Source: an uncultured Pseudomonadota bacterium
Lineage (GTDB): Bacteria; Babelota; Babeliae; Babelales; RVW-14
DNA: 64,000 bases
Assembly (NCBI GenBank): GCA_964446935.1
Contig: CAYUQI010000002.1
Location: forward strand, 194 to 64,193
Direction of reading: 5' to 3'
Shown here in pieces: positions 18,076 through 47,600 of this stretch (positions within the stretch are counted from its first letter, which is position 1; each line of letters opens with the position of its first letter). The notes under the pieces are model-generated. The model saw only the letters and a program-made list of their open reading frames with translations. It was not told the DNA's origin and did no database searches. Both the position numbers and the translations under genes were made by a program.

Positions 18076-18113
18076 GTGGGTTTCCTTTGATTTATTCTAA
18101 AAATGGGCCTTTT

Positions 18114-18194
18114 TTGTCATGCTGAACTTGTTTCAGCATCCATTTTACTAAGGTTAAGGTTAGCGTGGATCCTGAAATGAATTCAGGATGACAA
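18114..18194. repeat. 81-bp palindromic repeat element (REP/MITE-like), copy 1
   Basis: Terminal inverted repeats TTGTCATGCTGAA / TTCAGGATGACAA. Two internal hairpins: ATGCTGAA-cttgt-TTCAGCAT and ATCCTGAA-atga-(A)TTCAGGAT. A second copy lies at 22632-22772. Confidence 0.7.
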
Positions 18195-29523: not shown

Positions 29524-29618
29524 GGATTTTTCAAAGATCTTTACAAATTCTTTGCTCAGTATAGGATAAAATTGCTGAATGTCAATTTATCCCTATTTGT
29601 AAGGATTTTCTGTAGGTT

Positions 29619-30452
29619 ATGAAAACTAAAACAACACCACAATTTTTTAAAATTGATAGAGACAATTCAAAAAAAAGGTCATTTCCGTTCAAAAAAAAGG
29701 CCTTTGGCCAGCATTTTTTACGCAGACAGTCGGTGGTTGATCATATGATCGACAAAGTTGTCATTACCCCGGAGACTTCAGTTCTTGAAATCGGTTGTGG
29801 CGATGGCTTTTTGACTCAATCCATTCTATCTCAGACGAAGTGCAAGCAGCTTGTTGGTTATGAAATTGACCGAGAATGGGCCTTTGTTGTTAAGAAAAAA
29901 ATTAAAGACCAGCGATTTATTCTTAAAAATGAAAATTTTTTAGAAGTTGATTTTTCATCCTTTGAAGCATCAAAGCCATGGGTATTGCTGGCTAATCTTC
30001 CTTATCAAGTTACCTTTCCAATTCTTTTTCTTATACAAAAGCATAAACACCTTTTTACTGAAGGTGTGGTAATGGTTCAGGAAGAGGTTGCACAAAAGAT
30101 TGTTGCCAAAGAAGGTCGTAGTTTCAATCCAACGACACTTTTTTTACAATACCATCTCCAATGGGAATTGATGGAAAAAATTGAACCTGCGGCATTTGAG
30201 CCTCCTCCCAAGGTATTCTCACGGTTGCTCTATCTTAGGCCTCGTCCTGATGCTCAAGAAATTCCAGAAGAAGAAAAGTTTTGGAAATTTTTAAAGCTTT
30301 GCTTCAGATCCCCACGACAAACATTACGTAATAATCTTAAAACTACCCATTTTCAGTTAACTAAAATTCCATCCGAGATACTTAGTCTTCGTGCTCAACA
30401 AATGTCATTTGAGCAATTTTTGAAGTTGTGGGGTACCTTGATTGAGGTATAA
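29619..30452 (+). CDS. rsmA: 16S rRNA (adenine1518/1519-N6)-dimethyltransferase
   Basis: FGQHFL, VLEIGCGDGFLT (SAM motif) and LLANLPYQVT. Confidence 0.85.
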   Translation: MKTKTTPQFFKIDRDNSKKRSFPFKKKAFGQHFLRRQSVVDHMIDKVVITPETSVLEIGCGDGFLTQSILSQTKCKQLVGYEIDREWAFVVKKKIKDQRFILKNENFLEVDFSSFEASKPWVLLANLPYQVTFPILFLIQKHKHLFTEGVVMVQEEVAQKIVAKEGRSFNPTTLFLQYHLQWELMEKIEPAAFEPPPKVFSRLLYLRPRPDAQEIPEEEKFWKFLKLCFRSPRQTLRNNLKTTHFQLTKIPSEILSLRAQQMSFEQFLKLWGTLIEV

Positions 30453-31576
30453 ATGTTCTGTTTTTCCTGGTCAATAAGCCAGGCGACGGTATTGTTGTGA
30501 ATGACGCGCAATCCTACTGCTAAGTACTCAAGCACCTTGGTCGGTCGCGAAACCCAATTGATAACATCTGGTTCTCGAAACAAAAGTCCTGCGTCTGCAG
30601 CGGCAAGATATTGGAGGAGTTGTTGGGGTGGGACGTTCAAAATTCGATAAGCGTTGGGTGGTATGCGGTGTTTTCCAAAGATGTTGATAAAGGGCTCTTT
30701 ATCGGTTGTGTAAATGAGCAATATGCTATGTGAGTTTTGTTTATGTTGCTCAATAAAAAAATGTATGATTTCTTCTGGACACTGCCATGGCTTGTATGAG
30801 CCGCTGTAACAATAGGCATATGTGTCAAGAGGAATTGCCAGTTGTTTACGAATGACATCACGCCATTCTTGTCTTTGTTCCAGGGGAATGACACGAGGGA
30901 TATCTCGCATTGCCAGCGATATCTTTGATGAATGTGCATTAAATTTTTTAATAAGATAATCCTTGAGCGCCGGACTGACTGCTTCAATGATAACATTGCT
31001 AGGAATATCATGAGCATCTCTTTGTCGATATGCTTCTTTCTCAATATGTTTAAGCGATTTATAGATAAGACAACAATAACAGCTTTTAAATAAAGGCGTT
31101 TTCTCTTTAATCTTAGCATAGCGGAATTCTTCGGCAGCGAGGCCTCGTGCTTGAATGATAAGAGGGGGGAGGTGCCTGTATTCCCTTTTTCTTCCATTAC
31201 GCAAATGTTTTGCTGCTATATTGCGAAGTACATTAATACAAATCCAACCGGCTAATGGGCCTCGTGCAATGATTGTGGTACTTGGCATTTTACAAAACAA
31301 CCAAAAAAGTTGCCAACTGCTAATCCATAAGCTTAAGGTACCAATAAATGGTACCTTTTTGAGAAGAACAACATGAAGACGATCATGAGCAGGAATAAGA
31401 CTCATGAGCTTTTCTGCTGAAAGTTGTTTTCGTTCAAATGAGACAAGTGTGATTTCTAACGAACGATTGGCTTCAAGTTGATCCAATAAGGGCCGAAGGA
31501 CAATGCTACTAAATACTGAATTGGTGACACTGTCGTAGATTACGTACATACTATGTTTGTTGGCAGATTCCAACAT
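30395..31576 (-). CDS. GT-B fold glycosyltransferase-like protein
   Basis: C-terminal pattern LLQYLAAADAGLLFREP..RPTKVLEYLAVGLRVI resembles the GT4 nucleotide-sugar binding half. The N-terminal half was not recognised. Confidence 0.45.
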   Translation of the reverse strand: MLESANKHSMYVIYDSVTNSVFSSIVLRPLLDQLEANRSLEITLVSFERKQLSAEKLMSLIPAHDRLHVVLLKKVPFIGTLSLWISSWQLFWLFCKMPSTTIIARGPLAGWICINVLRNIAAKHLRNGRKREYRHLPPLIIQARGLAAEEFRYAKIKEKTPLFKSCYCCLIYKSLKHIEKEAYRQRDAHDIPSNVIIEAVSPALKDYLIKKFNAHSSKISLAMRDIPRVIPLEQRQEWRDVIRKQLAIPLDTYAYCYSGSYKPWQCPEEIIHFFIEQHKQNSHSILLIYTTDKEPFINIFGKHRIPPNAYRILNVPPQQLLQYLAAADAGLLFREPDVINWVSRPTKVLEYLAVGLRVIHNNTVAWLIDQEKQNIYTSIKVPHNFKNCSNDIC

Positions 31577-31620
31577 AAAACCCTTTTTTGACGGTTAAAG
31601 GACCTAGGAGGAAATAGTGT

Positions 31621-34011
31621 ATGAAATTTATTAAATCTTTTGAAACAATAAATATAAATGACATTGGTCTTGTTGGGGGCAAGAACGCTTCGCTCGGCGA
31701 AATGATACAAAATTTGAGCAAAAAAGGAGTTCTTATTCCGTCAGGGTTTGCTATTACTGCTGATGCATATCGTGCTCATTTGGCAAGCAACAACCTTATT
31801 GAGCCTATAAAAAAAGCGCTTGCTTCGATGAATAAGAAAAAATTGGATGATTTTGCAGCCCTTGGGCATGATATTCGGTTAATGATTCGTAGCGCCTCAT
31901 TGCCTGATGAAGTTGTGCAAGAAATACGGCAAGCATATCGTGACATGGAGCGGCGTTATGGCGCTCGTTGCGATGTTGCGGTTCGCTCATCGGCAACTGC
32001 TGAGGATTTGCCAGAAGCCTCGTTTGCTGGTCAACAAGAAACGTATTTGAATATTCGTGGAGAAACCGAACTGCTTATTGCTTGCGTGCGATGTTTTGCC
32101 TCATTGTTTACCAACCGTGCTATTTCTTATCGAATGGACCACAATTTTGATCACATGAGTGTTGCGTTGTCTATTGGCGTGCAAAAGATGGTGAGATCAG
32201 ATAAGGCAACTTCCGGTGTTATTTTTACCCTTGATACTGAAAGTGGTTTTAAGGACGTTGTTTTTATTACTGGATCATATGGGTTGGGTGAAAATGTGGT
32301 ACAAGGTACCGTAAACCCTGATGAATTTTATGTTTTCAAACCAACTCTCAAGACGGGCCACACCCCAATCCTTAAAAAGCGACTTGGAACAAAGTTGCTG
32401 AAAATGGTTTATGTGCAGGAGGGCAATGCTGTTACTAAAAATGTTCGAGTACCACTTGAAGAACGGCAGCGTTTTTCGCTGAGTGATGCAGAAATTATTG
32501 AGCTTGCGCATCAAGCATTGATTATCGAGGAACATTATTCAGCCCGTAAGGGAAGTTGGTGTCCGATGGATATTGAATGGGCCAAGGATGGTGATGATGG
32601 CAAGTTGTATATTGTCCAAGCTCGGCCAGAGACCGTTCATTCGAGTAAGCAGTATGCTACTGTTTTTGAAGAATATATATTACAAAAAGGGGCAAAAGAC
32701 ACTCACACATCGCTGTGTATTGGTAAAAGCATTGGCCGAAAAATTGTTACAGGCAAAGCACGTGTCGTGGAATCAGCAAAAATGATCAGTTCGGTTAAGG
32801 CTGGGGAGATTTTGGTAACAGATATGACCGATCCTGACTGGGAACCAATTATGAAAATTGCCGGGGGAATTGTTACCAATCGTGGAGGCCGGACGTGCCA
32901 TGCTGCCATCGTGAGTCGCGAGCTTGGTATCCCTGCCATTGTAGGAACGACGCATGCTACTGGCAAAATAAAAACAGGACAAACCATTACCGTGGATTGT
33001 AGTAGCGGTGAAGTAGGTGTTGTGTATGATGGCGCAGTACCCTTTGAAATTAAGAAAGTTCCTGTTGATAAGCTCAAAAAACCGCCGGTTGATATTTTGA
33101 TCAATTTAGGAAATCCGGATGAGGCGTTTTCTTTATCGCGGTTGCCTGTCAGTGGTGTTGGTTTAGCGCGGCTTGAGTTTATTATTAATAACAGCATTCA
33201 AATACATCCAATGGCCTTGGTGTATCCGGAAAAAGTTACGAGTGCTGATGATAAAGCAGTCATTGATTCATTGACGATTGAATATAAGGATAAAAAACAA
33301 TTTTTTGTCGATAAACTAGCACAAGAAGCAGGAACTATTGCTGCTGCTTTTTATCCTAAGCCCGTCATTATTCGTATGTCCGATTTCAAGAGCAATGAAT
33401 ATCGTAAATTGATAGCAGGTTCCTTTTTTGAGCCCGAGGAAGAAAACCCAATGATTGGCTTTCGCGGTGCATCGCGTTATTTCCATGAACAGTACAAAGA
33501 AGCATTCAAACTTGAATGTTTGGCGATGAAAAAGATTCGTGAGGACATGGGGCTGGAAAATGTTGTGCTTATGATTCCCTTTGTTCGTACGGTTCAAGAA
33601 GCCCAGGCTGTTATCAATCTTATGAAATTACATGGCTTGGAACAAGGCAAAAAGGGGCTTGAGTTTTACATGATGTGTGAAGTTCCTTCAAATGTTATTT
33701 TGGTTGATAAATTTAGCAAAGTTTTTAATGGTTTTTCTATAGGTTCTAACGATTTGACACAAATGACCTTAGCGGTTGATCGCGATTCGACACTTGTAGC
33801 GCCTATTTTTAATGAACGGGATGAAGCGGTTAAGACAATGATATCCATGGCTATTAAAGGCGCCAAACGGAATAACAGGAAAATTGGTATTTGTGGGCAG
33901 GCCCCTTCTGATTATCCAGAATTTGCTGAATTTTTGATTGCTGAGGGGATCGATTCGATATCGCTTAATCCAGATGCGGTATTGAAGGAGATTTTGCTGT
34001 TGGGCAAGTGA
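31621..34011 (+). CDS. ppsA: phosphoenolpyruvate synthase (pyruvate, water dikinase)
   Basis: VGGKNASLGEM, the swivel-domain phospho-His motif GGRTCHAAIVSRELGIPAIVG, and a PEP-utilising C-terminal TIM barrel (GFSIGSNDLTQ). Confidence 0.9.
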   Translation: MKFIKSFETININDIGLVGGKNASLGEMIQNLSKKGVLIPSGFAITADAYRAHLASNNLIEPIKKALASMNKKKLDDFAALGHDIRLMIRSASLPDEVVQEIRQAYRDMERRYGARCDVAVRSSATAEDLPEASFAGQQETYLNIRGETELLIACVRCFASLFTNRAISYRMDHNFDHMSVALSIGVQKMVRSDKATSGVIFTLDTESGFKDVVFITGSYGLGENVVQGTVNPDEFYVFKPTLKTGHTPILKKRLGTKLLKMVYVQEGNAVTKNVRVPLEERQRFSLSDAEIIELAHQALIIEEHYSARKGSWCPMDIEWAKDGDDGKLYIVQARPETVHSSKQYATVFEEYILQKGAKDTHTSLCIGKSIGRKIVTGKARVVESAKMISSVKAGEILVTDMTDPDWEPIMKIAGGIVTNRGGRTCHAAIVSRELGIPAIVGTTHATGKIKTGQTITVDCSSGEVGVVYDGAVPFEIKKVPVDKLKKPPVDILINLGNPDEAFSLSRLPVSGVGLARLEFIINNSIQIHPMALVYPEKVTSADDKAVIDSLTIEYKDKKQFFVDKLAQEAGTIAAAFYPKPVIIRMSDFKSNEYRKLIAGSFFEPEEENPMIGFRGASRYFHEQYKEAFKLECLAMKKIREDMGLENVVLMIPFVRTVQEAQAVINLMKLHGLEQGKKGLEFYMMCEVPSNVILVDKFSKVFNGFSIGSNDLTQMTLAVDRDSTLVAPIFNERDEAVKTMISMAIKGAKRNNRKIGICGQAPSDYPEFAEFLIAEGIDSISLNPDAVLKEILLLGK

Positions 34012-34084
34012 TTTTGGTCGTTTGCATGTTGATAATGCAACTGGTATAATAAAACAATAGAAAAATTAAGCAGATTCTTTAAAA

Positions 34085-35002
34085 ATGGTGGTTATTATGC
34101 TTCGCAAACTAATAGTTTTTTTCGTATTTCTTAATCTAGTTGGTTCGTGCATAGGTGCGGTCAAAGAACCTCGTAGGAGGAAGCAACAGCCGCCCATTGT
34201 TTGTTTTGAATCAATTGATCAATCTACCTATGAAAAAAACGCAAAACAAAATATATATCATGGGCAGAACATGTGTGGTTTGTTTGCTACATACAATGGT
34301 CTTATGATGCTGGATCATGCTCGCACAGGAGAACAACCGACCGGCGAACGTTGTAAAAATATTGATTTGTTCAATACATGGCTTGGCAAGAATGATCAGA
34401 TTCTTAAAGACATAATAAATGACCAAACCATTAAAAAAGGTAAGTACCTCGGTGATTTGAGTGCTGACAATATCGAAGCATTGATTAAGAAACATGATTC
34501 ATCGGTTAAGAAACATGATTCATCATGTAAAGATGTTTCAATCGTCATTCAGTGGCGTGATTTTGAAAAAGCGTTACGCGGTATGTATGACACTATGAAA
34601 TCGTTTCGGCGTGATAAGGATCCACACTTGGTTATTGTTCATGCCAATAATCACTGGATTGCGATTGTTATTCTTGAGCATGAAACATGGTGTATGGATT
34701 CTTTCAATGACACAACAACAACCGATCCTATTGTAACTCGTGTTGATACCCTATTTCGAAGAGACTCTCTATCTTCACAACGCGTGCATGTACGCGAGAA
34801 ACGCAAAAGAAAGCAAATAACCCCAAAAAAAGATCCAAAGGATGTTGTTGAACTTTCTGATTCTGATGACGATGCTGATAAAAGCGTAGACAAAAATCAG
34901 CACAAAAGCGTTAAAGAGTCAGAAGACAAAAAGCATGATGTTCAAAAAACAGGCATCCAACCTGATGCCTCATCAGATAATTCTGGTTGTTCTATCCAAT
35001 AA
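34085..35002 (+). CDS. exported papain-fold cysteine protease with Josephin-like motif arrangement (candidate deubiquitinase) and a basic/acidic tail
   Basis: HGQNMCGLFATYNGL (Gln..Cys) and NHWIAIVILEHETWCMDS (His to Asp spacing of 15). Compare ataxin-3 QEGSLCAQHCLNNL and EHWFTVRKLGKQWFNLNS. The tail contains EKRKRKQITPKK. Confidence 0.45.
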   Translation: MVVIMLRKLIVFFVFLNLVGSCIGAVKEPRRRKQQPPIVCFESIDQSTYEKNAKQNIYHGQNMCGLFATYNGLMMLDHARTGEQPTGERCKNIDLFNTWLGKNDQILKDIINDQTIKKGKYLGDLSADNIEALIKKHDSSVKKHDSSCKDVSIVIQWRDFEKALRGMYDTMKSFRRDKDPHLVIVHANNHWIAIVILEHETWCMDSFNDTTTTDPIVTRVDTLFRRDSLSSQRVHVREKRKRKQITPKKDPKDVVELSDSDDDADKSVDKNQHKSVKESEDKKHDVQKTGIQPDASSDNSGCSIQ

Positions 35003-35115
35003 CAAAAAAGTGCTGCAAATTCTTAAAATATTGCTCCTCTGGCTCAGCTAAGAGCATACTCAATACAGTTTCATTGGGGTTTGGTTTTTGAAGTGGTCAA
35101 AAACGAGGGGGGAGT

Positions 35116-35982
35116 ATGAAAATTCAAAACCAATTTATTGTTTCGATTATAGTTTTCTTTTTATACGCAGTATATGTCCATGGTGCGGTCAAGAAGGAAA
35201 AAAAAGATCAAAAGTCGCATTCTCAAGTTAATACAGAATTTAATTTAGCCGCCAAAGCTGGGTCTCTTAAAAAGCTTAAACAAGCTATTGATGAGGACGC
35301 CTCTATTGATTATGTAACTCCACGAACAGGGTGTGGATCGATTCATTGGCTTGCCACAAGTGGTGATATAACAGCGATAGAAGTTTTGTTGAAAAATGGT
35401 GCAGATGTTAACCAAAAAGATGATATGGGTAGAACATGTCTTTTTTCAGTGCTGAGTAATGAGCATGTTAATAATCTTAAAACGTTTAATATTCTCATTC
35501 GCAAACATAGCGCTATTCTTGGTACTAAGGATAATAAAAGAAACACACTTTTTCACGCGGCAGCTGCAATAGGATCTACGTTTTGGATCAATACTTTGTG
35601 GGCTACTATTTGCGAAAAATTTCCGGAGGAAGTAGCTAGCGGCCTGTTAAAAATGGAAAATATCGATCACAAAACAGCTCTTGATTTAGCACAAGGGCAA
35701 TATGATTTTGCGGAAAAAAGGTATCAGAAGGCTCTTGATTCAAGTTCAGATCAAAGCAATGACCATTCAGTGATTAATCGTGCGAACAAGATGAAAAAGT
35801 ACAAAACCGTTATTACAACAATTGAGCAGCTATTGCATATCAAGCCACATGAAGAGAATAGTACGCAAAGTAGTAGTACGCAAAGCAGCAGTACTGCTAC
35901 CCCTGCCCCATTGACCAAAATGAATAGCTTTGCGCCTGAGGATGATGATGGTCTTGGATCTGCTAGTAAAGATGATAGGTAA
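35116..35982 (+). CDS. exported ankyrin-repeat protein
   Basis: Signal-like N-terminus. ANK motifs GSIHWLATSGDITAIEVLLKNGADVNQKD and NTLFHAAAAIGS. Ser/Thr/Gln-rich tail with a STQSSS repeat. Confidence 0.8.
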   Translation: MKIQNQFIVSIIVFFLYAVYVHGAVKKEKKDQKSHSQVNTEFNLAAKAGSLKKLKQAIDEDASIDYVTPRTGCGSIHWLATSGDITAIEVLLKNGADVNQKDDMGRTCLFSVLSNEHVNNLKTFNILIRKHSAILGTKDNKRNTLFHAAAAIGSTFWINTLWATICEKFPEEVASGLLKMENIDHKTALDLAQGQYDFAEKRYQKALDSSSDQSNDHSVINRANKMKKYKTVITTIEQLLHIKPHEENSTQSSSTQSSSTATPAPLTKMNSFAPEDDDGLGSASKDDR

Positions 35983-36111
35983 ATATATGAATCGTTCATT
36001 CTGCCAAAATCAATAAAAATCTTGATTTACTGACATTTAGCTTGTTTTTGTTCTACACTCTATTCATGAAACGTTAGTATGTAGGGTGGTTTGTAATGCA
36101 AAGAGGACACA

Positions 36112-37023
36112 ATGGTGTTGAAGGATATCTCAGTCCCACTGACAGTACCGGAAAAATCACGCGATATTTTTTGTCAAAATTATAGCAAGGCCACCAATAG
36201 TACCGGTCGGCTTTTTTTATTTGCGGGGGATCAAAAAGTTGAACATCTGAATAAAGACTTTTATGGGCCAGGAATTGATCCTGAAGATGCCTCACCTGAC
36301 CACCTGTTTGAAATAGCAAGTAAGGCCAAGATAGGCGTTTTTGCTACGAACTTGGGTCTTATTGCTCGTTATGCAACTAATTATTACAATGTGCGCTATA
36401 TGGTAAAACTGAACGGCAAGACCGATCTAGTATCTGCACAGCAGGCTGAACCACGAAGCCGTTGTTGGTCAACAATACAACAGGTAGCGTCGGTTAAAGC
36501 ACGCACCGGGCTTGATATCGTTGGTGTAGGATTGACGATATATCTTGGTAGTGAATATGAGGCTGAAATGTTGGCAACGGCAGCTGAAATGATTTATGAA
36601 GCACATCAGATAGGTCTTTTGACAACGGTGTGGATGTACCCACGAGGCAAGGCAGTAAGCAATGAACGGAGTGCTGAGATTATTGCCGGTGCTGCCGGGG
36701 TTGCTGTGTGCTTAGGTGCAGATTTTGTGAAAGTTAATCCACCAGAGGCAGCTAAAAGCCTTGAAAGCGCCCAATTATTACGTCAAGCAACGGCGGCAGC
36801 TGGTAATACACGTGTAATTTGTTCTGGCGGTTCAAGTAAAAAAGAGCTCGATTTGTTACACGAGGTGTACAATCAAATTCATGTTGGTGGTGCTATGGGT
36901 GCCGCCATTGGCCGTAATATTCATCAAAAAAATACACAGCAAGCAATCAAATTATGTAATGCATTAGCGTCGATTATTTTTGATGATGCAACGGTTGACG
37001 TTGCGCAACAATGTTTAAAATAA
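36112..37023 (+). CDS. class I (DhnA/FbaB-type) fructose-bisphosphate aldolase family protein
   Basis: GRLFLFAGDQKVEH, the MVKLNGKT segment and the ADFVKVNPP segment, as in DeoC/LacD/DhnA aldolases. Confidence 0.65.
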   Translation: MVLKDISVPLTVPEKSRDIFCQNYSKATNSTGRLFLFAGDQKVEHLNKDFYGPGIDPEDASPDHLFEIASKAKIGVFATNLGLIARYATNYYNVRYMVKLNGKTDLVSAQQAEPRSRCWSTIQQVASVKARTGLDIVGVGLTIYLGSEYEAEMLATAAEMIYEAHQIGLLTTVWMYPRGKAVSNERSAEIIAGAAGVAVCLGADFVKVNPPEAAKSLESAQLLRQATAAAGNTRVICSGGSSKKELDLLHEVYNQIHVGGAMGAAIGRNIHQKNTQQAIKLCNALASIIFDDATVDVAQQCLK

Positions 37024-37041
37024 CCGAACAGGGGGTGGGGT

Positions 37042-37788
37042 ATGCGTTTCAGACGTATAAAAGAATACGCCAAGTTCTTGAAAAGTTTATTCAAAATAAA
37101 TGTTCGGTTGTTATGGGGGATGTGGCGGTTAACCAAACTTCCGCAACCTGCCATTACGGTATTTGGTGGTTCTCGAATTCCTCATGACAGTATTCATGCT
37201 AAGATGGCGACTGAATTAGGCAAAATGCTTGCCGGTGATGGGTTTTCTATTATTACCGGCGGTGGCCCGGGCATTATGGCGGCCGCCAATCAAGGTGCTA
37301 TTGAGTATTTAAAAGAGTGTCATATCAATGGTAATCGGTGTCATAACGAAGTAGTTTCTGCCGGTATTGGGTTATTGCGCCTTAATATCGAAAAGACAAA
37401 TCCTTACCTACAAGAAAATATACAAATGACACACTTTTTTTCCAGAAAATGGTTGCTTGTTCGTTATTCAGTTGGTTTTGTGATATTCCCTGGTGGGTTT
37501 GGCACCCTTGATGAGTTGTTTGAAATTGTTACTCTTGTTCAATGTAATAGAATGGCGAAGGCTCCTATTATCCTTATGGATAAAAGTTATTGGCAACCAT
37601 TGATGGAGTGGGTTGATCATCGTGCGTTGGCATATCAATTAATCTCCCCAGCCGATAAGAATATTTTTACCGTTGTCGATACGGTCGAAGAGGCTTTTAC
37701 TATAATCCATGATTGCTGTAAAGGAATGGAAAAGTCGGTGCTGTATAATGGTGGTGAGCGGCAGAATAATGCCGGTGAACAGAAATAA
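37042..37788 (+). CDS. LOG-family (TIGR00730-type) nucleotide phosphoribohydrolase
   Basis: GGGPGIMAAANQGA and PGGFGTLDELFE motifs. Confidence 0.8.
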   Translation: MRFRRIKEYAKFLKSLFKINVRLLWGMWRLTKLPQPAITVFGGSRIPHDSIHAKMATELGKMLAGDGFSIITGGGPGIMAAANQGAIEYLKECHINGNRCHNEVVSAGIGLLRLNIEKTNPYLQENIQMTHFFSRKWLLVRYSVGFVIFPGGFGTLDELFEIVTLVQCNRMAKAPIILMDKSYWQPLMEWVDHRALAYQLISPADKNIFTVVDTVEEAFTIIHDCCKGMEKSVLYNGGERQNNAGEQK

Positions 37789-37791
37789 AAA

Positions 37792-37834
37792 TGAGAGAGG
37801 GACGAGGCAACAGCCTCGTCCCTCTCTCATTTTC
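37792..37834. terminator. bidirectional rho-independent terminator
   Basis: 17-bp perfect stem TGAGAGAGGGACGAGGC-aaca-GCCTCGTCCCTCTCTCA followed by TTTT. Confidence 0.85.
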
Positions 37835-37847
37835 TTCACAGAGAAGT

Positions 37848-38999
37848 TTATTCAGTTGCTCCATGATCCTGTAAATATTTAATCATTTTTCGATTTCTAT
37901 GTTGTTGAGCCCAATAAAGAGCGGTATATCCGTAAAAATTTTTGTTGTTTACATTAACCCCCGCCTCCACCATTCTTTTCACACCAACAAAATTATTCTG
38001 TTTCGCGTAACTAACTAAAGTCTGAACCATCTTGTAGGGCGTCATTCCGAGCAGCCGTTGTTTACGCTTTATGGTTTCTACTTTTCTTATATCCGCCCAC
38101 TCTGTTTTTTCTTGTGCTTCTTTAATTGCTTCTTTTGCATCTTCTTGTAAAGCTGCGGCTTTTTTTAGGATATCTTCTTTGGTTTGAAGAGTCTCATCTG
38201 CCAATATTTGATCGGTAAATTTTTCTAATTTTTTTTCTTTGAGTATTGTTGTTATGTTTTCGATTTTTTTATTTTGTTCATCTAAGTCTTGTTTTAATCG
38301 CTTTAAGGTGGCCAATTCAATCTCGAGTTTGCCTTTTTTAATGACAAATTTAGTGTTAGCCTTTACCTTGGTTAAAATGTCTTGAATTTTTTCTATTTCA
38401 ACGATCTGGCTTTCAATGTTTTCTAACTCTGCTTCCTTGTTTTTTATGTAGGTATCTAGATTAGATACAGTCCATAGACTTTCTTGTATATCAGCCACTG
38501 TTGTGTCAAAGTTGCCTGCTATTATTCTATTGATAAGTCTTCTTCCCCGTCCTGTTAGATCATAGTTGATGTTATGTTGATAAAAAGAAGCAATTATGGC
38601 AGCAATGCCAGTCAGGGATATCCCATCGAGCCATTTTTGTACCGCCACATTATCTTGTGGATAATATTCTAAATTTTTTCCTTCTTTAGAAAAACTTTTA
38701 ATGTTGGGAGTTTCGCCAGCGTCAAAAGGGCTGTATATTACAGTAAAATCTCCAACATTCCTTTTAAATTTTAAAATTAATTTATATAAAATATCTAATT
38801 TCTCTGGATTATCGGTTAAGTTGAGGGTGTTTTCATCGATATCGATGCATTGATTTGTTACGCCAAAAGGATCGTTTTCAATTTTTTTTACTACAGAATC
38901 AATTGTTTCTATTGTTATGAGTTTTTGTGAAGACTGGCCATAACAGGTGAGATAAGAAAATAAGACTATAAAAATAGAAAACATTTTAAAGATTCTCAT
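37848..38999 (-). CDS. exported coiled-coil protein with C-terminal ankyrin repeat(s)
   Basis: Signal-like MRIFKMFSIFIVLFSYLTCYG. Long heptad-like K/E-rich middle region. C-terminal VKRMVEAGVNVNNKNFYGYTALYWAQQHRNRKMIKYLQDHGA. Confidence 0.6.
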   Translation of the reverse strand: MRIFKMFSIFIVLFSYLTCYGQSSQKLITIETIDSVVKKIENDPFGVTNQCIDIDENTLNLTDNPEKLDILYKLILKFKRNVGDFTVIYSPFDAGETPNIKSFSKEGKNLEYYPQDNVAVQKWLDGISLTGIAAIIASFYQHNINYDLTGRGRRLINRIIAGNFDTTVADIQESLWTVSNLDTYIKNKEAELENIESQIVEIEKIQDILTKVKANTKFVIKKGKLEIELATLKRLKQDLDEQNKKIENITTILKEKKLEKFTDQILADETLQTKEDILKKAAALQEDAKEAIKEAQEKTEWADIRKVETIKRKQRLLGMTPYKMVQTLVSYAKQNNFVGVKRMVEAGVNVNNKNFYGYTALYWAQQHRNRKMIKYLQDHGATE

Positions 39000-39736: not shown

Positions 39737-42400
39737 TTAAGCAGATACAGCTTCAAGCGGCTCTTTTTCTCGCTGTGCTATGCCAATAGGTCCTTGGACT
39801 GGCGCATAATGCGCAGCTTGTTTTTGCTTTTCTGCTTCTCGTTTGAGCCGTGCTTTTTCAATGGCTTCAGAGACCTTAAAATAAGGGTCTTCTTGTAGGT
39901 TGGCCGACTTTGGTCGGTTTCTGCCATACGTGTAGTCATCTATTGGTCTTAAAACACCTTGAGCAGCATCTGATAATTTTTGCTTAATTGTCTGATGTGA
40001 TGGTCGGAAAAACCATCGTTGTATTGGATCTCGGTCATGAATGTACATATCATTTTTCATAATCTGATATTTAGCATAATCAAGTTTAAGTTGGGTATAT
40101 TCATCAGGAGCGCCCTCAAAGCGTGGTTTGATAATACTTGGGCGAATGAATACGTAGAGGTTTTCCTCTGTTTTCGATTTTGCTTTAGTTTTAAACAAGT
40201 TTCCCAGAATTGGAATATCGCCAAGAATTGGAGTTTTATAAACATCATCAGTTAGTTTACTTTTGGTTAATCCACCAAGGACCAAAACTTCACCAGCGCC
40301 CAAACATGCTTTTGTAACCAGTTTTCTTGTTGATTTGGAAGCGGTATCCGAAGGGTTTACTTGTTGAAATTCATCGACCGATATATCGGTTGACAGGTCA
40401 ATGGTACCCGTCAAGTTGATAGTAGGTGTAAGATCAATTTTAATTTCAGCATCCAAATCTTCTTTTTGAACGACTGGCTGGATGTTTTTGGTATCTACTT
40501 TGCCGCTGACTCTAAATGTTGTTTTGACCGAAACCGTACATTTTTGATTGTTGTTGGCGATAACATATGGTTGTGAAATAACTTGAGAATTTTTGATATT
40601 TAACGTTGCCTTGATGATTGACCAGATGTTTTGATTCGTTCGTGGATCTGCGCGTCCTAAGGTAAAGTAACTCCCGTGTTCGTTACCAATAAGCTGATTA
40701 GCGGGATCTAAAAAATCAATGTATGGGTTTGAAAATGGATTTTTGCTTTCTTCAGTGCCACTTTTAGCTATCCCTGATGTTAGATTTTGGAATTCAACAT
40801 TGACATTATGAGCGAGCGGATTGCCTTTGACGTTAAACATCTGTACCCCGAGTGAACGATCATTTTGCATATTCACATCAACAATCATGACCTCGATAGC
40901 TACTTGTGGTTGTGGTTTGTCAAGTTTATCAATAAAGGTCTCAAGCCGTTTCCAGTCTTCTCGGTTACAAGCAATAATAAGACGATTACCGCCGCCGCGT
41001 TTGGCTGTTTCGGATCCAGCTGTATCATCTTGTTCTGCGCTGATAACAACATCTTCAAAAACCTTGTAACCACCTTCCATGACCAATGCCTTTTCTGTTG
41101 TTCCTTTTGGTGGTTTGATGATATCAACAAGAATAGGTTGAATATCTTGTGCACGAACATAACGCAGCTCCTTGACATGGAGGCGGGAATCAGCACTTTC
41201 GATAGGGACATCAAGATATTTGTAGATAAAGCCTTTGATTTTTTCGATATTCTTTTTAGTGCCTAGGAGAATAAGTGAGTTTTGTGTTGGTTCAGCAAGG
41301 ATTTTTGTCGCTGAAGAAAAATAAGAAGCTTCTTTTGATTGAAACGATGAGAAACGAATAATCTTTTCGTCTTTTTCTCCAACAATATCGGTAAACAGTT
41401 TTTGAATATCATCAGCATTAGCCCATGTGAGTGAAATTACCTCAATAGCTTCACGAAGCCCGCCATCGTCGAGTTCTTTGACGATTTTCATGGCTGCTTT
41501 GATGTTTAAACATTGATCTTTGATGATACAGACGTTCAAATCCTTGTTATCAACAATATTTTTTTCATCAATCATTTTGCTTAAAATACTATGTGCGGCG
41601 TCAACCTTTATATTCTTTAAAAAATAGACGTATCGGACAACAAGATCGCTATCGGGAAGATTTTCTGGCTCTGTTCCGGTTCCTGATGAGTACACAGGAA
41701 GTGGTTCTTGTCCGTTGTTTTGGCTTGGAACAACGCGGTGCAGTGCCCCGACTTTAACAATGGTGAACCCATTCATTTCAAGAAGGGTAAGCATTACGTT
41801 CCATGCTCGTTCGAGAGTTAGCGGGTTACGCGTTGTCAATGAAACCTTAGCCGTCTCGAGGTCTTTATGAGGAATAATATTAAACTTTTTTTGCTCTGAG
41901 AGGTAATTAAGCACACTTCCAAGTGAAGCATTATCAAAATTGAGATAAATATTTGCATCATCCTGTGTTTCTTGTGGCACTAAATCGCCGACGTTAATCG
42001 TTGTTGAAGGCATAACTCCATTTTGTGGCGGAAGTGCCGGTTGCGGGGTTGCTGGTTGTTGTTGCTCTGGTTTGCTTGGCGTGACAGGAGTTGTTGTCGA
42101 TGATTCAGTTGGCGTTGCTGGTTGCAGTGGTGTAGAAAATTCAGGCATTGAGGCTATTGCGGATTCGGCTGGTGGCATTGCAGCAGAAGGCGGCACAGCA
42201 GTGGGTGCTGTTGCGACTGTTTCTGCAGCAGGGGTAGCCGTTGTTAGCTGAGGGGCTGGGGTAGCTGTGACTGATGGCACCGGGGCTGAAGTGGTAGGCA
42301 TAAGTGGCATGAGTGCCATGGTGGTGTTTATCCACCATGGCGCAAACAGAAAACATAAGAGCATTATAAGTGATCTACTATATTTCATAGCCGTTATCAT
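39737..42400 (-). CDS. secretin, GspD-like (copy 2)
   Basis: N0-like IYLNFDNASLGSVLNYLSEQKKFNIIP..LEMNGFTIV. Secretin core VLVLGGLTKSK..YKTPILGDIPILGNLFK. Signal peptide and a Pro/Thr/Ala-rich spacer. Confidence 0.85.
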   Translation of the reverse strand: MITAMKYSRSLIMLLCFLFAPWWINTTMALMPLMPTTSAPVPSVTATPAPQLTTATPAAETVATAPTAVPPSAAMPPAESAIASMPEFSTPLQPATPTESSTTTPVTPSKPEQQQPATPQPALPPQNGVMPSTTINVGDLVPQETQDDANIYLNFDNASLGSVLNYLSEQKKFNIIPHKDLETAKVSLTTRNPLTLERAWNVMLTLLEMNGFTIVKVGALHRVVPSQNNGQEPLPVYSSGTGTEPENLPDSDLVVRYVYFLKNIKVDAAHSILSKMIDEKNIVDNKDLNVCIIKDQCLNIKAAMKIVKELDDGGLREAIEVISLTWANADDIQKLFTDIVGEKDEKIIRFSSFQSKEASYFSSATKILAEPTQNSLILLGTKKNIEKIKGFIYKYLDVPIESADSRLHVKELRYVRAQDIQPILVDIIKPPKGTTEKALVMEGGYKVFEDVVISAEQDDTAGSETAKRGGGNRLIIACNREDWKRLETFIDKLDKPQPQVAIEVMIVDVNMQNDRSLGVQMFNVKGNPLAHNVNVEFQNLTSGIAKSGTEESKNPFSNPYIDFLDPANQLIGNEHGSYFTLGRADPRTNQNIWSIIKATLNIKNSQVISQPYVIANNNQKCTVSVKTTFRVSGKVDTKNIQPVVQKEDLDAEIKIDLTPTINLTGTIDLSTDISVDEFQQVNPSDTASKSTRKLVTKACLGAGEVLVLGGLTKSKLTDDVYKTPILGDIPILGNLFKTKAKSKTEENLYVFIRPSIIKPRFEGAPDEYTQLKLDYAKYQIMKNDMYIHDRDPIQRWFFRPSHQTIKQKLSDAAQGVLRPIDDYTYGRNRPKSANLQEDPYFKVSEAIEKARLKREAEKQKQAAHYAPVQGPIGIAQREKEPLEAVSA

Positions 42401-42955: not shown

Positions 42956-44665
42956 TTATATCTCTTTCAATCTCATTCTCACCGAAAAGTTAACCCCATC
43001 TGCCGGTGTGGTTTCAATAGGCTCGATAACTTTGAGGATTGTTGAATCTCTAAAACGGTTTTCCAATGGAATGAAATCAACGAAGTGATCACCTGTTTTT
43101 GATTTAAAGATTCCTTCAACTTCAAGTTTTGGAATGCCAGCATCTTTTTTAGGCGAACCATCCTTCTCTTTTTCCCAATTGCGTTCTTGCGTAGTAAAGA
43201 CAATTTCTTTGATCGAGACGTCAAATTGTTTTCTATTAATAATACGCGTGAGTTCAAGCCACAAATCAAGTGGTCGCATGCGTTGTTGAGCAAATGGAGC
43301 CCACACATCAAGCTTATCACGGACAATTCGCTCAGCCTCACGGACAACAGTTGCTAATGATGCGTTTCTAGGAAATTGTTCTTTGGTGAAGATATCCTCT
43401 GTTTTAATGCGATTGATTTCACGTAATTCAAACATTCGAGCTTCATTGCTCAGTTTGTGCAGATCAATAAATCCTTTGATTCCTATTCCTGTGAGCATGG
43501 CGATGATAATAAACACAGCCATTGCTAGTTGTTTGACTAAAAGGCTATGCCGTTGAAAGGCAAATTGTTTTCGCCGTAAATCAAACAACTCTTGTGCTGG
43601 TGATGGAATAGCGGCACCAAGAGCGTTGGTAAAGATGTTCCAGTGATCGATAGGAGATTTGACCTTGTTTTTGATGTGTTTGGTATCAAAAAGTTTTTTA
43701 CAATCAAAGATTTCGCATGGAAGTTGAATGGTGTTACTGCAAAATTCCATAAAATTAGGAATTGTGTGTACATAACCGGTAAAAAGGACTTTGCTGATTC
43801 CTTCGTAATAATTCAACTTAAGGCTGAATGAATTGAGGGTAAATTGTACCTCGTTGAGCAAAAGCACGAAATGCTTTTGCATACTGCGGGCGAGTACTTC
43901 ATCGTTAAGGCCATATAAGCCGGCTGCTGCAAGCTTCTTTTCAACCTCTTCAGGCGAAAGCTTTGTTTCATCACTGATAAATTTAGTGATTGAGGCCATA
44001 CCTCTTTGAATGTAACGTGTGAGGCGAAGTTGCCCATCTTGAATAAAGGCAACGCGTGTATTTTCATGGCTAAATTCAACAAGTGCTACTGCATTGGGCA
44101 AAGAATGATATTGAGGAATCTGTTGAAAAAGCCCATACAATGAAAACAAGTCAATGGTGATATGCGCAGGATCAACTCCAGCTTTTTCGTAAATAGAAAG
44201 ATGTGCTTGTAGATCTTGACTTCGTACTGCTGCAACAAGGACCTGCGTTCCTTGATCCTTGCTTGTTTTTGTGATGATAAAATCAACAATTGCTTCGTTA
44301 ATAGCAAAAGGAATCATGGTTTCTATTTCATAATCAAGTACCATTCGAATTTTTTCTGGATCGCTGAATTGTAGCTGCAATTCTTTGAAAATAACGATTG
44401 ATGCTGGAATACAAATGCGAACATAATTGTATGCTGAAATGGTACCAATAATTTTTTTAATAGCTTGTGCAGCTCGATCGGTATATGTTTCTGCCGGGCC
44501 GGCCTCGATTTTCTCTTCTTTAAGAAACTCAAGGATATTCTTATGACGTTTGGCATATACAAGCGCGAGTCGAACTGCATCATCATGCAGTGCCAACCCA
44601 ACAATGTGTTGGGCAAGAATACGATGAGTACCTATTTTTTCAGGTAAAAAAATTTCCTTGATCAT
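42956..44665 (-). CDS. GspL / PilM-PilN-type protein (actin-like cytoplasmic domain + TM + periplasmic domain)
   Basis: PilM-like segments VAAVRSQDLQAHLSIYEKAGVDPAHITIDLFSLYGL and TRVAFIQDGQLRLTRYIQRGMASIT. TM segment LAMAVFIIIAMLTGIGI, then a ~170-aa tail. Confidence 0.65.
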   Translation of the reverse strand: MIKEIFLPEKIGTHRILAQHIVGLALHDDAVRLALVYAKRHKNILEFLKEEKIEAGPAETYTDRAAQAIKKIIGTISAYNYVRICIPASIVIFKELQLQFSDPEKIRMVLDYEIETMIPFAINEAIVDFIITKTSKDQGTQVLVAAVRSQDLQAHLSIYEKAGVDPAHITIDLFSLYGLFQQIPQYHSLPNAVALVEFSHENTRVAFIQDGQLRLTRYIQRGMASITKFISDETKLSPEEVEKKLAAAGLYGLNDEVLARSMQKHFVLLLNEVQFTLNSFSLKLNYYEGISKVLFTGYVHTIPNFMEFCSNTIQLPCEIFDCKKLFDTKHIKNKVKSPIDHWNIFTNALGAAIPSPAQELFDLRRKQFAFQRHSLLVKQLAMAVFIIIAMLTGIGIKGFIDLHKLSNEARMFELREINRIKTEDIFTKEQFPRNASLATVVREAERIVRDKLDVWAPFAQQRMRPLDLWLELTRIINRKQFDVSIKEIVFTTQERNWEKEKDGSPKKDAGIPKLEVEGIFKSKTGDHFVDFIPLENRFRDSTILKVIEPIETTPADGVNFSVRMRLKEI

Positions 44666-47600
44666 GCAATAGCCTTTTGGTCTATTTGCTTTTTAAGAGT
44701 ATTTTGAGCAAGCGCACGATGTGCTGTTAAAAAGTCATTTAATCCATTTCGCTGCTGTGTATCAGTTATGAGTCGTATTTCAGGTGCCTTGGATCGTGCT
44801 GCAAGTGTACCAGAGGGTGGGGCTATGAGGTTCTTGAGCGATTCGCGCTGTTGAGGATCCACCGTTATTGGCATCGGCGTTGGCGTAGGTTCTGTGTCTT
44901 TTGGTGATGTCGAAGAACGAGAAAGTAACTCTTTAAGTTTATTTCGTTTTGCTATAAGCGAGTCATCTGGCGTTGGTATTGGTTCAATTGGTTGAGGCGT
45001 ACGCAATGAAACGGCAGGTGGAGTGGTGACTTGCGGTGACGCAGGAGTCGTTTTTTGTATTTGATTGTGCGCAACCACTGAAGGCTTTTCTTTCTCGATT
45101 GATTGAGGTGGGGTTAGATTATTCGCCTCTTGTTGAATTATTGGTTTTGGTTCACTGATAAGCGCCCTGTAATAAGGATCATTTTTAATATCGACGGTTG
45201 TTGGTTGATAGCGAGCATTGGCAAAGTCAATAACTTTATGAGAGTAATTTTCTTTATCTGGGTTAAAGAACCAATTATGAATAGGATCTTGGGTTCGCTT
45301 TGTTTCAACAGTGTTTTCAATATCTTCGGTGGCTTGGTGAAGTTTCATCTTTGTATATAATTGCATGCCGGGTATTTGTCGTGGTTTAAGGATTGTTGGG
45401 GAGAGGAAAATAAAGAGGTATTCTTTAATAATTGTACGTTGTTGATCTTTAAAAAACCAACCAAGAATGGGGATGTCTCCAAGGACTGGCGTTTTGTTTT
45501 TGGATTCATCTACTTTGGTTTTTATAAAACCGCCTAAGACGAGAACTTGGCTATCTGCTACACTAACGTTGGTTTCAAGTACACGGGTTGATTTTTTAGT
45601 TGCTTCATCATTTTCAAATTCTGTTATTTCTACTCTAATTTTTAATCGTATAACACCATCAAGATTTATTTGAGGTGTAAGTTCAACTTTGGTTGATGCT
45701 TCAGCATTAATGTAACCTTTTGCCCCTGTAGTTCCTGAAACTTCTTCCGAAACTATACGCTTGGTTGAACCAACGTTGATATTGGCTGTGGTTTTGTTGG
45801 CAACCGTAATAAATGGTTGAGAAAGAATGGAAGCGTTTGTTTGAGTTTTAAGCATTTTGAAAACGCTCCAAATATTATTCTCTTTACCAAACGATAAACA
45901 TGTTTGACCTTGTGTTGGGACGAGTTGGTTAATTAAATTACCAAGCAAGCTGACATTTTGTGCCTGATCATTTTTTTTAAGGGTAGGACCATCGGTAAGT
46001 GAAGCAGATTGAAAATCAACATGGGTTCCCAATTGCCCTTCTTTTTTATTGCGAAGCATTCCGCCAAGTTCTTTAACATCGTCAGAGCTTATGGTTACCA
46101 GTAAACTTTCAATGGCAACTTGAGGTTGTGGTTTGTCAAGGTCTTGAATTGTTTTTTCCAGCAATGTCCAGTCCTGTTTATCAAGACATGAAACAATTAA
46201 TCGATTGCCATCTTTATCAACCTGAAAGTTCATATTTTTAAAGTATTTTACACCGCCACGGATAGAACCAAATTTGCCAGCGGCTTGTCCTGTTGTTGAT
46301 TCTGGTGCTATGGTAACTTCCTTCAAGATATCTCGAACTTGCGTAGCATCGATGTGTTGTAATTCGTAGATGTGTAGAGGGGATTCGGCTTCTTTAAGGT
46401 CAGTATCAATATGTTTGCTGATGAAATCGACGATCTTATCAATTGATTTGTTATTGCCAAGTAAAATAAGCGAATTGGTACGTTCTTCTGGTACAATTTT
46501 GGTGGTTGGGGAAAAATATTCGGTTCCGCCTTCAGCTGTTTTTCCTAAAAGTCGCGCAAGCGGATTTGTTTGATCTGGTTTTTTAATTAACGCATCAAGA
46601 AGCGTTTTTACATCGGTTGCATTAGCACGTTTAAGCCTTAAAACGGTGACGCTTTCAGGCAATCCCATCTGGTCAAGTTCGTGAATGAGTTTAACAGCCG
46701 CTTTAATGTTATAAGACTTATCAGTGATAATGAAAGCATTCATGTCTTTTTGCTCGTGTACCACGTTAGGCTGGCTGAGCATGCTTTCGAGTACTGGTTT
46801 GATATCAGTTACCGAAATATTGGAAAGAAACGTGACATAACGAATGGTTAAATCACTATCTGGCAACGATTCATATGGAACGTTAATGTAGGCAGGGAGA
46901 GGTTGATTAAGCTTTTTATCCTTAGGAATGATCTTATGAACATCACCGACTTTAACAATGCTAAAGCCTGACATTTCAAGAACGGTGAGAAAGATATTCC
47001 ATGCTCCTTCAACCGTGAGTGGCTCGCGTATGGTGAGGGATATCTTTGAACCTTCAAGCCCTTTGTCTGGGACAAAATTGATTTTTTTAATCTCAGCAAT
47101 GTAATCGATAAAACTCGAAAGTTCGGTATTTTCAAAATTAAGATAAATATCTTTTTTTTCTTCTGCAGGGGTTGGTGTTGTAACCCCTGGTGTTGGTTTT
47201 GTTTCTGTTGCAGCAGGTTGCGGGGTTGTTTGTTCAGATGGTGCGCCTGCTGTTTGCTGTTCAGTGAGCTGGGACTGGGTTTCTGCGGCTACTGGGGTGG
47301 TAGATTCTTGTGGTGTGGTAGGTGCTTCTGGTGCTGGCGCAGGAATTGATGCCTCGTCAATAGTTGGAGTAGGGATAGGTGCTTGCGTAGGTGTGGGAGA
47401 CGTTGCTGGTACTGATGGTTGTATGACAGGTGCTATTGAGGGGGTAGGCGAAACAGCTGAAATCGATGATGCCGATAGTGCAGCAGGTTGTTGCGGGGTT
47501 ACGGGCATTGTTGGTATTGCCGGTGTTGTTGCTAGTGCCAATGGCATTGTTGGCATTACGGGCGTCGTCTCTGTTGCTAATGGCATTGTGGGTATAGCAG

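Follow-up and report, generated by a model that had tools for sequence, protein, structure and literature searches.

Results

A gene for a predicted exported cysteine protease

We analyzed a 64,000-nucleotide stretch of DNA (contig CAYUQI010000002.1; here called the window; G+C content, ~39%) from the genome of a bacterium that has not been cultivated and belongs to the order Babeliales in the phylum Dependentiae/TM6 (assembly of 1.3 Mb; completeness, 94%). Its plus strand carries a gene for a putative cysteine protease of 305 amino acids, which is the subject of this work. An earlier note on this DNA had read the open reading frame (ORF) in the same way and had proposed that it encodes a secreted, Josephin-like deubiquitinase (DUB) of clan CA or a protease acting on ubiquitin-like (Ubl) modifiers. 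An alternative start at Met5 would give a 301-residue form, which is the one on record. The gene and the elements of its catalytic core, in window coordinates, are as follows.

34085 to 35002, plus strand: coding sequence, 305 amino acids plus stop
34190 to 34819, plus strand: predicted catalytic domain, residues ~36 to 245, a permuted Ulp1-like papain fold according to the AlphaFold2 model and a permuted hhalign alignment (94%)
34220 to 34222, plus strand: codon of Gln46 (in SIDQ), the presumed oxyanion-hole Gln, near-invariant; aligns with Ulp1 Gln574
34274 to 34279, plus strand: Cys64-Gly65, catalytic Cys (invariant) at the N terminus of a helix that starts at model residue 37 (Cys64); aligns with Ulp1 Cys580-Gly581
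34652 to 34657, plus strand: His190-Trp191, catalytic His (invariant) and aromatic gatekeeper (Trp conserved in at least 90%) at the start of a strand; aligns with Ulp1 His514-Trp515
34697 to 34702, plus strand: Asp205-Ser206, third triad member, invariant, at the end of the next strand; aligns with Ulp1 Asp531-Ser532

Cys64 lies in HGQNMCGLFATYNGL, while His190 and Asp205 both lie in NHWIAIVILEHETWCMDS; the distance from Cys to His is 126 residues and that from His to Asp is 15, in agreement with the motif order and spacing reported earlier. When 1.8 billion representative proteins were searched exhaustively with phmmer, about 20 relatives with 27 to 36% identity were recovered. Across 23 homologues at 20 to 34% identity, only Cys64, His190, Asp205, and Ser206 were invariant, and it is this restriction of invariance that places the sequence features beyond chance. 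Conservation of at least 90% in the 23-sequence alignment was found for Gln46, Gly65, Phe96, Trp99, Phe174, Pro180, Trp191, and Ile192. The Gln/Cys motif that the earlier note had singled out, HGQNMCG, is indeed present, but its Gln (Gln61) is not conserved, and the near-invariant Gln is instead Gln46.

The motifs of the wider superfamily read P-x-L-x-Q-x5-C-G-Y-Y-A-L-x-N-[AG] and G-H-W-[IV]...D-S. In most distant relatives, the Gln thus lies 6 residues before the Cys, a distance typical of papain, whereas it lies 18 residues before the Cys in the 305-residue protein. The subfamily of the window protein has an insert of ~17 residues between Gln46 and Cys64. DUBs and Ubl proteases specific for Gly-Gly are typically marked by an aromatic residue next to the catalytic His (PMC7391069). 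We considered Phe96 or Trp99 as the second Trp of the SENP "tunnel" and dropped the idea, since the profile aligns that block with the helix that follows the Cys in SseL.

AlphaFold2, supplied with the 23-sequence alignment, gave a model with a mean predicted local distance difference test (pLDDT) score of 86.4 and a predicted template modeling score of 0.85; a prediction from the single sequence (pLDDT, 38) was unusable. In the model, Cys64 stands at the N terminus of a long helix, His190 opens a β strand, and Asp205 closes the next, adjacent strand. Among the 50 Foldseek matches listed, those related to proteases were only local; they comprised SENP1, SENP2, SENP3, SENP5, SENP7, and SseL, all of clan CE, and in this comparison, which is blind to permutation, they spanned ~54 columns for SENP1, SENP2, and SENP5 and 94 columns for SENP7. 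No Josephin or UCH structure from the PDB was among those 50.

The catalytic core aligns with Ulp1/SENP proteases in permuted order

Ulp1/SENP enzymes carry their catalytic residues in the order His, Asp, Gln, Cys, which is not the order of the window protein (Gln46, Cys64, His190, Asp205). When 44 superfamily ORFs were compared with Pfam, weak matches were obtained to Peptidase_C48 (5 members; best E value, 3e-4), Josephin (3 members), and ElaD/SseL (3 members), as well as to YopJ, C78, and C12. Nearly all of the C48, Josephin, ElaD/SseL, and YopJ matches fell on the His/Asp hairpin; one C48 match fell on the Gln/Cys part of the profile. Against PDB sequences, a profile of the close family found nothing relevant. 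The native-order profile of the 44 ORFs matched 7fiu (E value, 4e-5) and 6dg4 (1.6e-4), followed by SseL, 6ups, and SENP8. In the match to 7fiu, the two blocks were swapped: the His/Asp block (profile positions 212 to 271) corresponded to chain positions 95 to 158, and the Gln/Cys block (profile positions 99 to 132) corresponded to chain positions 171 to 204. The same swapped pattern of two blocks was seen in 6dg4 and SseL.

We permuted the family in silico by cutting 35 sequences once, 36 residues after the Cys, and rejoining the halves in the opposite order; the position of the cut was not tuned. The permuted profile gave single colinear matches in the PDB to 6dg4 (4.4e-5), RickCE, 7fiu, five SENP1 entries, and OtDUB, with E values from 4e-5 to 0.07, and lower matches to African swine fever virus S273R and SENP8 at 0.5 to 0.6. 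Permutation also moved the Pfam C48 matches from 5 of 44 members to 9 of 35 and the best E value to 3e-5. The Pfam C48 gathering threshold was not reached: the 305-residue protein had no match in either order, and distant members scored at most 21 bits.

Pairwise profile comparison with hhalign used yeast and human enzymes as yardsticks (four Josephins, two UCHs, and Ulp1, SENP1, SENP2, and SENP8). In native order, the probability was 31.5% for Ulp1/SENP (19 columns), 8.6% for Josephin (25 columns, His hairpin only), and 1.0% for UCH. In permuted order, that for Ulp1/SENP was 94.0% (E value, 1.4e-7; 98 columns), while those for Josephin and UCH were 8.0% and 0.8%. The HW, DS, Q, and CG motifs all aligned with their Ulp1 counterparts listed above, and the aligned spacer took in the helix that follows the Asp as well as the strand that leads up to the Gln.

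From the swapped blocks in the PDB matches and the colinear 94% alignment obtained after rearrangement, we conclude that the family has a permuted CE core and not a Josephin core. On this sequence comparison, the catalytic core is homologous to Ulp1/SENP (MEROPS C48, clan CE) and circularly permuted, with the Gln-Cys helix block first and the His-Trp/Asp-Ser hairpin second. Clan CE is itself regarded as a permuted papain fold (PMC7391069). A search of 121 Babeliales genomes for the canonical domain, PF02902, gave no match, but the control genomes gave none either, so the result does not speak for its absence from the order.

Could the protein still be a colinear DUB of clan CA, akin to Josephin (or UCH) and keeping the ancestral order of papain, Gln-Cys...His...Asp? 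The order of its residues and the His-to-Asp spacing of 15 do match those of JOSD2 (HWVALRQVDGVYYNLDS) and ataxin-3, and the Pfam Josephin profile matches three distant superfamily members (L061 best, with an E value of 8e-5; L062, 4e-4); the UCH profile (Peptidase_C12) weakly matches the Cys motif of one paralogue (0.0017). The resemblance of the HW...DS block to ataxin-3, on which the earlier note had relied, is real. However, Josephin and C48 share this hairpin, so the resemblance does not discriminate between them, and the Josephin profile matches are confined to it (positions 98 to 148 of 157). Native hhalign could have aligned both motifs colinearly yet yielded only the low values above. 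The window protein has no Pfam match to Josephin, and no Josephin, UCH, or OTU chain in the PDB was matched by the family profiles at E values up to 10 (native) or up to 1 (permuted), though 6pgv, 1yzb, 2aga, 2dos, and 3o65 were in the library; nor did the Foldseek matches listed include a Josephin or UCH structure. The assignment to Josephin and clan CA therefore has to be given up, and we consider a colinear enzyme of this type very unlikely.

A small family with members in many Dependentiae genomes

Profile matches occurred in 55 of 261 Dependentiae genomes, and the window's genome holds three further, more distant paralogues. The family, found in Dependentiae, is small and fast-evolving. 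A word-indexed search for homologues recovered nothing beyond the protein itself, also when the query was a profile of 15 sequences, and a related-locus search with a narrower alignment found one metagenome-assembled contig, already known from the genome search. The family profile also detects members fused to AAA domains in Babeliales genomes; an AAA domain was present in 2 of the 44 superfamily ORFs (Pfam AAA E value, 8e-27). The catalytic domain is found inside giant proteins as well (P0006, P0012, and P0013, of 1,369, 1,803, and 1,533 residues).

Several members differ from the window protein in composition. Tandem paralogues of 419 and 445 residues in the window's genome (G000:C1:35503-36762 and 36811-38148; locus L047, 504-1763 and 1812-3149) bear the motifs WECGY... 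and SHWNCFVF...DS, and each has a signal peptide and an N-terminal domain of ~200 residues; an F-box-like stretch (IFEQIATFLSKKDKATLAAACRYL) was recognized by eye in the second. A distant paralogue of 510 residues (G000:C6:50972-52504; locus L048, 473-2005) has Asn rather than Asp at the third triad position (GHWIAVSV...IINS), and it is the Gln/Cys motif of this protein that weakly matches the UCH profile. At G030:C17 ~17428-18192 (locus L016), a copy of the domain lies within an open frame of 3,751 residues and is followed by NLS-like (nuclear localization signal-like; GKKRKD) and SIM-like (SUMO-interacting motif-like; HVINLDNILDENSS) stretches. Three superfamily members, L045, L046, and L060, lack the catalytic Cys (Ser, a gap, and Asp in that column) and keep the His/Asp block wholly or in part; these are probably pseudoenzymes. 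The metagenomic homologue P0010 (566 residues) runs into a complete undecaprenyl diphosphate synthase domain (PF01255; E value, 1e-55) and probably represents two genes that a frameshift or the gene call has run together, not a genuine fusion.

A predicted export signal and a tail with eukaryote-like targeting motifs

Outside the catalytic core, the gene encodes the following elements.

34085 to 34159, plus strand: predicted Sec signal peptide, residues 1 to 25 (MVVIMLRK / LIVFFVFLNLVG / SCIGA), from a hydrophobicity scan; helix 2 to 23 in the single-sequence model
34485 to 34524, plus strand: in-frame 21-nucleotide tandem duplication (Tandem Repeats Finder: 1.9 copies, 100% match), encoding KKHDSSV/KKHDSSC
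34796 to 34831, plus strand: basic NLS-like cluster EKRKRKQITPKK (KRKRK...KK), residues 238 to 249, a pattern match only
34844 to 34879, plus strand: SIM-like VVELSDSDDDAD, residues 254 to 265, an hhXh core with an SxS/acidic run (VVELSDSDDD), a SIM consensus match
34988 to 34999, plus strand: CaaX box CSIQ, residues 302 to 305, a C-terminal pattern and predicted host farnesylation site at Cys302

The N terminus combines a basic n-region with a hydrophobic core of 12 residues (Kyte-Doolittle maximum, 2.75), in keeping with the signal peptide noted earlier. A similar hydrophobic segment (maximum, >2.0) is present in 13 of the 15 close homologues and in 35 of the 44 superfamily ORFs; all of these calls are predictions from the Kyte-Doolittle hydrophobicity scan. 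A lipoprotein signal, LVGS|C, was set aside: homologues do not conserve its Cys, and a Gly would be atypical at position -2. Many of the predicted superfamily signal peptides end in Ala-Met (...SAM, ...DAM, ...IAM, or ...NAM; loci L021, L024 to L028, L035, L061, L062, and L067 and proteins P0003, P0007, and P0008). Cleavage after the Ala would leave a mature N-terminal Met; we speculate that this might mimic a cytosolic N terminus and evade host N-degron pathways.

Two secretin genes lie in the window, 5 to 10 kb from the protease gene (39737 to 42400, minus strand, 887 residues, PF00263 E value of 6e-33; 44662 to 47667, minus strand, 1,001 residues, E value of 5e-36), and a third secretin is encoded on contig C1. 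A VirB4-type type IV ATPase was searched for in the window's genome and was not found. Effectors exported by Sec may leave the cell through these secretins.

Of the last 73 residues, 45% are charged, and, as had been noticed before, this stretch contains an NLS-like cluster; among 15 full-length homologues, 7 have K[KR]x[KR] clusters. The CaaX box and the SIM-like VVELSDSDDD had been missed. SIMs guide SENP6 and SENP7 to SUMO chains. The SIM of Daxx is IIVLSDSD (PMC8616421), so that LSDSD is common to Daxx and the window protein. Stringent SIM-like motifs in the family tails numbered 4, compared with 0.53 in shuffled sequences (P = 0.002), and all four were in members that bear a CaaX box. Such boxes are common to the four closest tail-bearing homologues (4 of 15 homologues), with the endings CTIQ, CVIL, and CIIL. 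In the window's genome, by comparison, a Cys at position -4 is found in only 15 of 1,256 ORFs, 3 of which look exported and end in CSIQ or CSIL.

Two other ORFs of the window's genome combine a signal peptide with a CSIL ending. One (G000:C6:59851-61659, minus strand) encodes 603 residues, with a signal peptide ending in SLSAM and USP-type Cys and His boxes (GLMNNANYCFANAALQ; GGHYTALVRYGNSWFLCND). Its match to PF00443 (E value, 6e-4) is below threshold and spans profile positions 1 to 239 of 254; judged by its sequence, it looks like a second exported, prenylatable DUB. The other (G000:C5:64502-65653, minus strand) encodes 384 residues; it is rich in Ser, Thr, and Pro in a C-terminal stretch and ends in WWPCSIL. 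No Pfam match was obtained for it, and it is a candidate third exported CaaX protein.

These motifs bear on the possibility that the protein is a papain-fold peptidase with a non-Ubl substrate, which might process other secreted proteins, degrade host proteins, or act in the envelope, and that its tail motifs arose by chance in a disordered region. Dependentiae secrete many hydrolases (PMC6561590), a signal peptide alone places a protein merely outside the cytoplasm, the SIM, NLS, and CaaX patterns are degenerate, and cleavage of Ubl modifiers by the 305-residue protein is a prediction. On the other hand, the residue conserved at Trp191 is a gatekeeper strongly enriched in Gly-Gly-specific DUBs and Ubl proteases (PMC7391069), and all detectable relatives are ubiquitin or Ubl proteases (C48, ElaD/SseL, Josephin, C78, and C12). 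The enrichment of SIM-like motifs and the frequency of CaaX boxes among homologues, set against ~1% of ORFs with Cys at -4 in the genome, likewise argue against chance. We regard a non-Ubl peptidase as improbable.

Genomic surroundings

The protease gene follows a phosphoenolpyruvate (PEP) synthase gene after a gap of 73 bp, in which one promoter-like element was noted.

34021 to 34050, plus strand: promoter-like site, TTTGCA, an 18-nucleotide spacer, and TG-TATAAT, a consensus match only

Promoter-like matches in the region numbered 4, with 4.1 expected from shuffled sequences, so the site is weak evidence for a promoter. Directly downstream, after 113 bp, lies an ankyrin-repeat gene (35116 to 35982, plus strand) that encodes 288 residues with an N-terminal hydrophobic signal (Pfam Ank_4 E value, 2e-9). 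The interval between the two genes showed no terminator-like site on the plus strand; hence, they may be cotranscribed.

We compared the neighborhood (window positions 29600 to 37000) with a locus of a congeneric genome (L077; G121:C5:22500-30000). There, the PEP synthase gene is inverted, cysK- and dapF-like genes occupy the place of the protease and ankyrin genes, and a DeoC-like aldolase is 68% identical. This arrangement places the two accessory genes at a rearranged junction; the comparison showed a neighborhood that is rearranged, not a clean insertion site.

The 21-nucleotide duplication described in the earlier note, which Tandem Repeats Finder confirmed, falls in a variable surface loop that is the only low-confidence one in the model (pLDDT, <50; model residues 115 to 119). 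The insertion is absent from nearly all homologues, and only P0009 has residues in those columns.

Discussion

Our analysis shows that the catalytic set is conserved, that the protein is homologous to clan CE proteases in permuted order, that its fold is modeled with confidence, and that its tail motifs recur in the family. Taken with the predicted signal peptide, these findings lead us to favor, with some confidence, an exported cysteine isopeptidase with a permuted Ulp1/SENP-type core that would act on host ubiquitin or Ubl modifiers. The wider proposal of the earlier note, a secreted DUB or Ubl protease, thus survives as a candidate: the papain-fold Cys/His/Asp set, the aromatic gatekeeper after the His, the predicted export signal, and the NLS-like tail are all in place.

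Several points weigh against this reading. The link to clan CE emerges at the profile level only, with modest E values of 1e-4 to 1e-7, and the 305-residue protein alone had no match in Pfam, NCBIfam, or PDB sequences. Foldseek found no global neighbor in the PDB or BFVD (best E value, 0.16; TM score, <0.25); we ascribe this to the permutation together with a divergent helical insert and do not take it as proof of a new fold. The reference sequences of Ulp1, SENP1, SENP2, SENP8, JOSD1, UCHL1, and UCHL3 may contain errors, which could only lower the hhalign scores; the JOSD2 reference was identical to 6pgv, and the ATXN3 and SENP1 segments agreed with tool output. Three congeneric genomes gave no profile match, from which it follows that the gene is not essential. 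The SIM, NLS, and CaaX elements are short, degenerate motifs. Finally, we know of no established path in the phylum Dependentiae that takes a Sec-exported protein to the host cytosol.

Clan CE supplies a further objection. The clan includes acetyltransferases with the same catalytic residues (PMC4961225), and one superfamily member weakly matches the YopJ Pfam profile (E value, 8e-4). The protein might accordingly be a YopJ-type acetyltransferase, or an enzyme of dual activity such as ChlaDUB1, and not an isopeptidase alone. Yet the YopJ match is limited to the His/Asp hairpin common to all CE families, the best matches are to Ulp1/SENP-type enzymes, and regulatory features specific to YopJ were not detected. 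The chance that the protein is such an enzyme seems to us slight indeed.

For the isopeptidase that we favor, the export, host delivery, prenylation, nuclear or SUMO targeting, and enzymatic activity are all inferred; a plausible sequence of events would be the following. The Sec signal peptide would bring the protease to the periplasm, and a type II-like secretin system would release it from the cell. In the cytosol of a protist host, host enzymes would farnesylate CSIQ at Cys302, and the basic cluster and Daxx-like SIM could steer the protease to nuclear or SUMO-rich sites. There, Cys64, His190, and Asp205, with Gln46 forming the oxyanion hole and Trp191 as the Gly-Gly gatekeeper, would cleave Ubl modifiers off host proteins. 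SUMO is our first guess as the substrate, and ubiquitin or NEDD8 is possible.

The tail, with its NLS-like, SIM-like, and CaaX motifs, suggests by analogy that an uncultivated parasite with only Sec-dependent export copies eukaryotic targeting signals, as Legionella does; such copied signals would point to SUMO as a target in protist hosts. In its most ambitious form, which we hold to be doubtful, the idea is that the protein would be a deSUMOylase with a re-permuted CE fold, farnesylated by the host and guided by its SIM, and that its subclade would represent a new functional class of bacterial effector. Released by a bacterium whose export is limited to Sec and type II secretion, it would be directed by a lamin-like combination of NLS and CaaX box to the nuclear envelope of the host and would there remove SUMO, possibly as poly-SUMO chains, from host proteins. 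Together with other exported proteins of the window's genome, namely a USP-like one that bears a CaaX box, F-box proteins, and a Skp1-like one, it would form a toolkit that rewires the ubiquitin and SUMO systems of protists.

Clan CE proteases are the main bacterial route for reversing host ubiquitin and SUMO marks, and to our knowledge all characterized members of the clan keep the His-before-Cys order. A family of the opposite order that folds with confidence would show that a CE core can withstand being permuted once more, into the order of papain.

Comparison with known systems

The closest precedent comes from the same phylum and order. Pagnier et al. (2015, Biol Direct 10:13, PMC4378268) predicted permuted Ulp1-like peptidases in Babela massiliensis, fused to AAA ATPases and with atypical signal peptides, and found some copies to be inactivated; they called the permuted form unique to that species, and the only export system that they reported finding was type II secretion. 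The Babela proteins and the window protein are alike in their permuted Ulp1-like motifs, in an N-terminal signal peptide, in having some members without catalytic residues, and in being known from computational prediction. Compared by description, the window protein differs from the AAA-fused Babela proteins: it stands alone at 305 residues, has no AAA domain, and ends in a tail with NLS-like and SIM-like motifs and a CaaX box. By its sequence, it belongs, as a member that stands alone, to the permuted Ulp1-like peptidases of Babeliales, the kind predicted in 2015. The permuted kind as such had already been predicted; the wider distribution and the eukaryote-mimicking targeting tail are new. 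Since the family occurs in about one-fifth of the sampled Dependentiae genomes, with several paralogues in each, the statement that the form is unique to Babela needs updating.

With the eukaryotic SUMO and NEDD8 proteases of the Ulp1/SENP type (C48, PF02902), the window protein shares the His-Trp, Asp-Ser, Gln, and Cys-Gly motifs, the stretch that separates the Asp from the Gln, and the aromatic gatekeeper. It departs from them in its Gln-Cys...His-Asp order, its insert between Gln46 and Cys64, its bacterial origin, its signal peptide, and the lack of a Pfam match at threshold or a global Foldseek match. The bacterial relatives of Ulp1 described by Pruneda et al. (2016, PMC4961225), SseL/ElaD, RickCE, OtDUB, and ChlaDUB, are secreted and act on host ubiquitin or Ubl modifiers, and they are among the best PDB profile matches. 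These effectors have His before Cys and leave the cell by type III or type IV secretion or autotransport, whereas the window protein is permuted and has a plain Sec signal.

Josephins (MEROPS C86, PF02099; ataxin-3, JOSD1, and JOSD2) resemble the window protein in the Cys-before-His order, the HW...(D/N)S hairpin with 15 residues from His to Asx, and a helical insert that follows the Cys helix. The conserved Gln, however, lies 18 residues before the Cys in the window protein (6 in relatives) and 5 in Josephins, and no profile or fold match extends beyond the hairpin. The known bacterial Josephins, from Simkania, Burkholderia, and relatives (bioRxiv 10.1101/2024.07.24.604956), are not of the window protein's family.

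Legionella AnkB is an established case of a secreted bacterial protein that is prenylated by the host (PMC2916131). Like AnkB, the window protein would be a secreted, eukaryote-directed protein of an amoeba-associated bacterium with a C-terminal CaaX box; unlike AnkB, it has a different catalytic domain, phylum, and secretion route, and its prenylation is predicted. The EmcB-family permuted OTUs of Coxiella (PMC12501173) offer a parallel in that the fold of a bacterial effector DUB has its catalytic Cys helix permuted. There, the fold is that of OTU, the Cys helix has moved to the C terminus, which is the opposite direction, and activity has been shown. The family described here would be a natural test case for structural biologists, to which the permuted OTUs of Coxiella are the only comparable one.

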